Source: Octopus sinensis (lineage: Eukaryota). From it: a stretch of DNA of 64,000 bases. The DNA lies in assembly GCF_006345805.1 (NCBI RefSeq), contig NC_043001.1:98270001-98334000 (forward strand), in the 5' to 3' direction. Numbering within the stretch: the stretch's first letter is position 1; each line of letters opens with the position of its first letter. This document shows, in pieces, positions 46,717 through 46,819 of the stretch. Both the position numbers and the translations under genes were made by a program. The notes below the pieces were generated by a model that did no database searches, was not told the origin of the DNA, and was given only the letters and a program-made list of their open reading frames with translations.

Positions 46717-46819
46717 GAAGTACTCTCCATTTGCTGCTCCGCCTTCCTGGTGGTATCATTGAACCCAGTTTACGTATGCTTGCTTCAAAATACAACTGTG
46801 AGAAGATGATCTGCCGAAA
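46717..46819 (+). CDS. UBA52: UBA52-type gene, coding exon 3 (Ub-like C-terminus and start of eL40)
   Basis: TTGCAG acceptor and GTAAGT donor; 103 nt; [34 protein letters not shown]. Confidence 0.96.

Follow-up and report, generated by a model that had tools for sequence, protein, structure and literature searches.

In this 64,000-nucleotide stretch of Octopus sinensis DNA (the window; NC_043001.1, positions 98,270,001 to 98,334,000) we find on the + strand a UBA52-type gene, coding for a ubiquitin-family leader fused to ribosomal protein eL40, in which the ubiquitin half has changed along its whole length. The octopus and cuttlefish leader is an animal variant of the divergent ubiquitin-eL40 known from Giardia and Plasmodium, and its departure from ubiquitin is larger than one residue. 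A sequence-only reading had singled out the arginine-to-proline change at position 74 (R74P), next to the di-glycine; the change is real but understates the case, being 1 of 39 leader differences from ubiquitin, and judged from the sequence it appears as one part of a whole-domain divergence. We consider it fairly probable that the octopus has this one UBA52 gene, and that drift has made of its ubiquitin half a leader acting as a folding aid only and cut after Gly76 by already existing deubiquitinases (DUBs).

The gene has four coding exons with GT-AG ends (41722-41824, 45559-45645, 46717-46819 and 49048-49141), which give a 128-aa frame with introns falling after coding bases 103, 190 and 293. 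The segment 46717-46760, from which the analysis started, is the beginning of the fourth exon. The features are listed below.

38563..38586, + strand: probable non-coding first exon, proposed from sequence only, with pyrimidine-rich CTCTTTC start and GAG/GTAAGT donor
41714..41824, + strand: exon 2, with ATG at 41722, leader codons 1-35 and AG/GT ends
45559..45645, + strand: exon 3, codons 35-64, carrying R42, V44, K48 and Q49
46717..46819, + strand: exon 4, codons 64-98, with the leader tail LRLPGG and the eL40 start; AG acceptor upstream
46746..46748, + strand: Pro74 codon CCT, P3 of the expected cleavage site, invariant in 7/7 cephalopod-type sequences
46749..46754, + strand: Gly75-Gly76, expected (putative) cleavage site ahead of eL40 Ile77
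49048..49141, + strand: exon 5, the remaining eL40 up to TAA, with a PF01020 match
49173..49178, + strand: AATAAA, probable polyadenylation signal of putative function; an X1 contig ends at 49176

Splicing was followed in contigs from the sequencing runs X1, X4 and X12, whose status as RNA is a guess, and the joins lie at the predicted sites: 41824 to 45559 (exon 2 into exon 3) in X12, 45645 to 46717 in X1 and X4, and 46819 to exon 5 in X1, with one letter between. Run X8 (RNA on record) had no cover of the eL40-gene exons. We infer the joint from the 38563..38586 exon to exon 2, which is absent among the joints seen in the run contigs; the CTCTTTC start resembles, as we assume, the TCT/TOP starts of ribosomal-protein genes. 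A DNA search returned exon 2 as single copy in the genome. In the 128-aa product Pfam places PF00240 at residues 3-73 (62 bits, cut-off 25) and PF01020 at 78-127, so that a ubiquitin-family domain is joined in frame to eL40 via GG at 75-76, as in UBA52 fusions. Run X1 carries both G and A at 49048, the first base of exon 5 and the third of a lysine codon, where the difference is synonymous. Elsewhere in the window, an open frame of 1134 codons at 52298-55700 (+) carries endonuclease, reverse transcriptase and zf-RVT domains; its make-up is that of a LINE-type retrotransposon, and further ORF pieces lie upstream at ~50734-52333.

The junction reads as the sequence-only reading had it, LRLPGG with the di-glycine and R72 kept and proline at 74. 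R72 is CGC (46740-46742), L73 occupies 46743-46745 and Pro74 is CCT (46746-46748), and eL40 begins at 46755 with IIEPSL. The tail of host ubiquitin is LVLRLRGG, and the changes in the leader tail are V70L and R74P. The product is letter for letter the database protein P0012, named Octopus vulgaris and O. sinensis; the octopus protein is annotated in databases simply as ubiquitin-60S ribosomal protein L40. All 6 sampled words of exon 4 were held by 20 of the 24 listed sequencing runs (10 studies; 2 RNA on record), and a spliced X1 contig over 46714-46819 had 0 differing letters. A-to-I editing is common in animals of the cephalopod type; the codon CCT contains no A, so by its sequence such editing is unable to alter Pro74. 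A sequencing error, a private allele or a pseudogene behind P74 is refuted and keeps practically no probability: no point in its support was found, P74 recurs across several species and runs, the spliced frame is intact and eL40 is fully conserved.

The leader is identical to host ubiquitin at 37/76 residues, far from the near-identity of canonical ubiquitin. Only the lysines K11 and K48 are kept and 5/7 are lost, and the tail LRLRGG is gone as well. The host has canonical ubiquitin elsewhere, as a polyubiquitin on contig C3 (ten matching units of one protein sequence) and as an RPS27A gene on C4 (canonical ubiquitin exons and LRLRGG). After its ten canonical units the polyubiquitin locus (L015, G000:C3, ~112,788,000) continues into a shortened degenerate unit ending LWLRGGF. 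The ubiquitin-like FUBI was rejected as origin of the leader, which has only 24 identities to host FUBI versus 37 to ubiquitin.

A genome search with PF01020, whose count is a lower bound, gave 5 matches, namely 2 exons of the octopus eL40 gene and 3 hits on small contigs. On the large contigs the search found no eL40 gene other than the intron-containing, spliced UBA52-type gene described here. The small-contig genes code for a divergent eL40, are interrupted at the same three positions by introns of 24-26 nt and have a LRLRGG tail, while their ubiquitin is near-canonical (69-72/76 identical in the 2 of 3 loci modelled); the tblastn alignment of the third is the same as that of one modelled copy. 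As canonical host paralogues they were rejected on account of the small contigs, the tiny introns, the divergent eL40 and the lack of a DNA match to the host gene, and a co-sequenced organism is their most likely origin. The tiny introns point, we presume, to a dicyemid parasite as the source. Introns of 24-26 nt and divergent ribosomal proteins were noted on the small contigs C9497, C10756 and C10954 (L002-L004), C1794, C12622, C2502, C9300 and C10777, and the assembly likely contains DNA of such an organism. The octopus gene has intron positions in common with the canonical ubiquitin-eL40 gene on C9497 and is thus the UBA52 orthologue, not an extra paralogue.

Conservation of P74 in orthologues, which the sequence-only reading had proposed as a check, holds in seven cephalopod-type sequences: P0012, O. 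bimaculoides P0001, Argonauta hians P0013, Sepia pharaonis P0014 and three without species name. LRLPGG is present in 7/7 (three Octopus names, Argonauta, Sepia). Comparison of the four named species shows 3-21 differences over the 76 leader positions and 0 over the 52 of eL40; 45/76 leader positions are invariant in the seven sequences, 28 of them equal to ubiquitin and 17 new. Every residue of the block 66-76, P74 included, is invariant in 7/7, and conservation therefore does not single out P74. The cephalopod-type leaders show 36-39 differences from ubiquitin, and the outgroups are canonical with LRLRGG (the bivalves Mytilus, 76/76, and Mactra, 75/76, and Lingula, 76/76); the eL40 part shares 90-94% of its residues with eL40 of other animals. 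When six cephalopod sequences were used as a profile, the clusters listed included no cephalopod ones beyond the three known, with no Nautilus and no named squid, so the origin within cephalopods is not datable; with the whole protein as query against 50%-identity representatives, tandem ubiquitin repeats made up most of the matches.

By prediction, the beta-grasp fold persists in the leader. AlphaFold2 with a 60-sequence alignment gave pLDDT 89-93 over residues 1-70, the tail and eL40 being of low confidence, and the modelled strands (2-6, 12-16, 41-45, 66-71) and helix (23-34) follow the order of ubiquitin; a single-sequence fold of the leader had mean pLDDT 46 and was discarded. R42, K48, R72, L73 and GG are invariant in 7/7 and L8 and Q49 are present in 6/7, and the 8/44/70 patch of the leader consists of L8, I44V, H68 and V70L. 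At 13 positions, the 11 USP-contact residues named in PMC10611586 and GG, 10/13 are identical to ubiquitin versus 27/63 elsewhere (p = 0.026, uncorrected), the exceptions being I44V, V70L and R74P. Of the positions that supplement 1 of PMC4862753 gives as stress-sensitive, 19/28 are identical to ubiquitin versus 18/48 of the others (p = 0.01, uncorrected); both values come from a series of 8 tests, 3 of them under 0.05, in which buried residues are uncontrolled. The pattern modestly suggests that the enzyme-facing side is retained and the opposite side has drifted.

What such a junction requires may be judged from other systems. In yeast the ubiquitin moiety aids eL40 expression in cis, and SUMO partly substitutes for it (PMC6721733), while Ubi1 precursor that stays uncut is poorly assembled and interferes with Tif6 recycling as well as with elongation and elongation-factor binding (PMC8122580). 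In mammals UCHL3, USP9X and USP7 act redundantly in cutting ubiquitin-eL40 (PMC4522658). UCH-L3 favours Arg at P3, hydrophobic residues mostly reaching <30%, in a text (PMC7477763) whose available part does not mention proline. According to PMC10611586, the ubiquitin tail is guided by hydrogen bonds, a glutamate of USP36 contacts R74, and FUBI is accepted although its Leu72 does not form that salt bridge; the nonpolar Leu72 together with V40 and P47 shields FUBI from other USPs, and USP42 becomes partly reactive once FUBI gets L72R or V40R/P47Q. According to PMC5419743, ubiquitin L73P resists many DUBs. Data on R74P, for DUBs or for E1, were not found in the literature searched.

The invariant GG and the kept face, taken with the facts of yeast and mammalian processing, make cleavage after GG likely, so the earlier expectation that the precursor is still cut, in its case after Gly76, would stand. 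The stronger claim, that proline at P3 may exclude most DUBs, survives in part: the FUBI case and the preference of UCH-L3 make a narrower set plausible, and P74 probably narrows the set of ordinary DUBs that would cut, as in FUBI, but the octopus leader has nonpolar 74 in the absence of V40 and P47 and in this resembles the more permissive FUBI mutant.

No sign was seen of the dedicated or co-evolved protease also proposed, in a limited look at host DUBs that covered the UCH family and a few USP loci. The UCH family has three loci on large contigs, which by their motifs we take to be UCHL3, UCHL5 and BAP1, and two on small contigs, with no expansion. A USP36-like locus on C5, identified by its helix-5 motif and neighbouring exons, reads QEDAHEFLRY with the RY motif, corresponding to human E207, D208, H210, R214 and Y215; helix 5 is the same as in human, including the glutamate pairing with R74. 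A pattern search for the USP16/45 helix-5 motif gave 11 matches versus 4 for the control, none clearly USP16/45 among the 8/11 translated. Host FUBI, which ends RMLGG and carries the V40 and P47 equivalents, already needs an enzyme tolerating a nonpolar P3. Within the UCH and few USP loci examined, the call for a new enzyme is unsupported.

As to E1, the sequence-only reading had P74 possibly barring the leader from ubiquitin activation, and this is unsupported: the leader retains R42, Q49, R72, G75 and G76, and with these determinants kept, exclusion does not follow from loss of R74. In PMC4862753 supplement 1, relative E1 reactivity is 1.00 for R74I and close to zero for R42C, Q49Y and changes of G75; R42E/R72E is the pair that defines an orthogonal ubiquitin (PMC7047443). 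For the accompanying idea of insulation from the ubiquitin pool, divergence of the whole domain and the loss of lysines offer a better explanation than P74 by itself.

In the interpretation we prefer, divergence would start in the cephalopod line once the gene escapes homogenisation with other ubiquitin genes, and the need to release eL40 would let selection keep the fold and the face gripped by USP-type enzymes. Pro74 would remove the arginine contact and slow cutting by UCH-L3 and many USPs, which would leave the work to USPs tolerating nonpolar 74, either of the USP36/USP16 type, which host FUBI already requires, or general USPs of another kind. Once released, the leader, with 5/7 lysines gone, would likely be a poor ubiquitin and would probably be degraded. 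Two points may count against the folding-aid view: proline, lacking a backbone NH, is not an ordinary nonpolar residue, and the adjacent L73P blocks many DUBs; and the keeping of K48, R42, R72 and Q49 (6/7) appears to go beyond the evident needs of a pure folding aid.

The same L73P block, together with the Arg preference of UCH-L3, speaks for a different outcome, in which Pro74 slows or blocks cutting at the junction and the leader remains on eL40 in cephalopod ribosomes; Giardia eS31 does retain an uncut ubiquitin-like domain (as described in PMC8122580). We hold this unlikely, since the Giardia case has alanine between the glycines, whereas GG and the whole of 66-76 are invariant in 7/7 here, the uncut yeast Ubi1 disturbs Tif6 recycling and elongation-factor binding, and the eL40 part, so close to that of other animals, shows no visible adjustment. 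Quite unlikely, in our estimate, is also the original proposal that a dedicated or co-evolved protease cuts LRLPGG while P74 bars E1 and most DUBs. The fixation of P74 across octopods and cuttlefish would fit it, as would the restriction of FUBI cutting to USP16/USP36 by a nonpolar residue at the same place (PMC10611586); it has against it the kept R42, Q49, R72 and GG with the full E1 reactivity of R74I (Q49Y and R42C being without it), the three large-contig UCH loci with no expansion, the unchanged USP36-like helix 5, and the position of P74 within a fully invariant block that does not single it out.

The retained residues could instead mean that the released leader is a modifier itself, E1-activated and attached singly or via K48, with P74 hindering its removal. 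R42, K48, R72, L73 and GG invariant in 7/7 and L8 and Q49 in 6/7, the stress-sensitive positions (19/28 versus 18/48, p = 0.01 uncorrected), the E1 competence of R74I and the reported conjugates of FUBI are consistent with this. The kept residues are, however, also DUB contacts or core, which is the simpler reading; 5/7 lysines are gone and I44V and V70L alter the main binding patch, a mark that is hard to remove conflicts with cutting of the precursor at the same bond, and the tick leader, a parallel case described below, loses far more of these residues. We regard it as improbable, and we give an equally low standing to its fuller version, in which the coleoid UBA52 leader would be freed by one proline-tolerant protease, charged by E1 via R42/Q49/R72/GG and used as a slowly removed single or K48 mark, with ticks arriving independently at a FUBI-like, USP36-gated form.

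Comparable leaders occur in other lineages. The eL40 search gave 1669 clusters, and among 123 junctions scored (the best 120 clusters and earlier proteins) 86 are LRLRGG and 6 LRLPGG (5 cephalopod, 1 without species name), in a set where clustering at 90% gives odd sequences too much weight and where many of the low-identity rows stem from faulty gene models whose tail is canonical. All 26 named tick eL40 proteins (P0024-P0033, P0038, P0380-P0389, P0401-P0409) are nonpolar at 74, with LRLVGG in 23 and LRLLGG in 3, and those aligned have leaders 25-36/76 identical to ubiquitin. Q49P, the equivalent of FUBI P47, is present in 17/17 from Hyalomma, Amblyomma, Rhipicephalus, Dermacentor and Haemaphysalis, and Q is kept in 8/8 Ixodes; the non-Ixodes hard ticks thus appear to converge on two features that in FUBI confine cleavage to USP16/USP36. 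A common origin of tick and cephalopod leaders was considered and rejected: their mutual identities (27-37) are no more than those of each to ubiquitin, and bivalves, brachiopod and insects are canonical. Degeneration of the tick leader appears independent of that in cephalopods.

Further degenerate leaders were met in the planthoppers Laodelphax and Nilaparvata (P0079, P0399; ending MLLRGG, with Q49P), in Seison nebaliae (P0123; ending LELLGG) and in P0098, P0102, P0105, P0108, P0119, P0125 and P0130, which include a group ending NLCGG. The proteins P0087 and P0392-P0397, from ENA contigs of 0.6-3.6 kb, have LRLPGG ahead of eL40 in leaders 65-66/76 identical to ubiquitin and could be either independent R74P or decayed retrocopies. 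Within the octopus assembly, an eS30 ubiquitin-like leader at L049 (~1390-1450, G000:C1794) reads KCPGG, also with proline at P3, and in the copies L050 and L051 the same place reads KCHGG and holds a short intron. An intronless FUBI-eS30 part-copy with one TAA (L046, G000:C28:18,463,735-18,463,908) is likely a processed pseudogene.

The octopus gene has the layout of human UBA52 and yeast Ubi1/Ubi2 (128 aa, a 76-residue leader ending GG, conserved eL40) and differs from canonical ubiquitin-eL40 by a leader 37/76 identical to ubiquitin, by LRLPGG and by 2/7 lysines. It also resembles UbL40 of the Plasmodium vivax/ovale lineages and of Giardia lamblia, where PMC10457151 describes a divergent ubiquitin half beside conserved L40 and polyubiquitin, with an intact predicted fold and conservative changes in the 8/44/70 patch; conserved L40 and polyubiquitin and a retained patch and predicted fold are likewise found here. 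Those UbL40 proteins have 11-23 differences, keep nearly all seven lysines and go with a divergent UbS27a, in contrast to the octopus with 36-39 differences, five lysines lost, canonical RPS27A and an animal host.

FUBI-eS30 (FAU), processed by USP36/USP16 (PMC8354635, PMC10611586), shares with the octopus leader a ribosomal partner, the GG site, a nonpolar residue in place of R74 and the F4 patch. The octopus partner, however, is eL40, not eS30, and its leader keeps R42, Q49, L8, L71 and the length of 76, lacks V40 and P47 and has no two-residue deletion near L8, while host FUBI-eS30, with V40, P47 and the deletion features, is a separate gene on C4. In Caenorhabditis and several protists a divergent ubiquitin sits on eS31 (summarised in PMC10457151), so that one ribosomal fusion is affected, as here, but the partner differs and octopus RPS27A is canonical. 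The engineered ubiquitin L73P also has a tail proline, though at P4, not P3 (as reported in PMC5419743).

Before the Plasmodium cases, divergent ubiquitin in an L40 fusion was known only from Giardia, as PMC10457151 states; the paper asks if such events are more widespread, and its available text makes no mention of ticks, Octopus or cephalopods. Within the literature searched, which included accessible parts of PMC11354881 and few subscription papers, no animal or cephalopod report of a divergent ubiquitin-eL40 leader was found. Why ubiquitin is fused to eL40 is an open question according to PMC8122580, and cephalopods, ticks, planthoppers and Seison offer natural experiments that separate the folding-aid role of the eL40 leader from that of ubiquitin supply. 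A natural proline at P3 would inform DUB biochemists on tolerance at that position, and R74 has been lost repeatedly while GG stayed (giving P in cephalopods, V/L in ticks and L in FUBI), which raises the testable question of whether such leaders are selected to avoid general DUBs.
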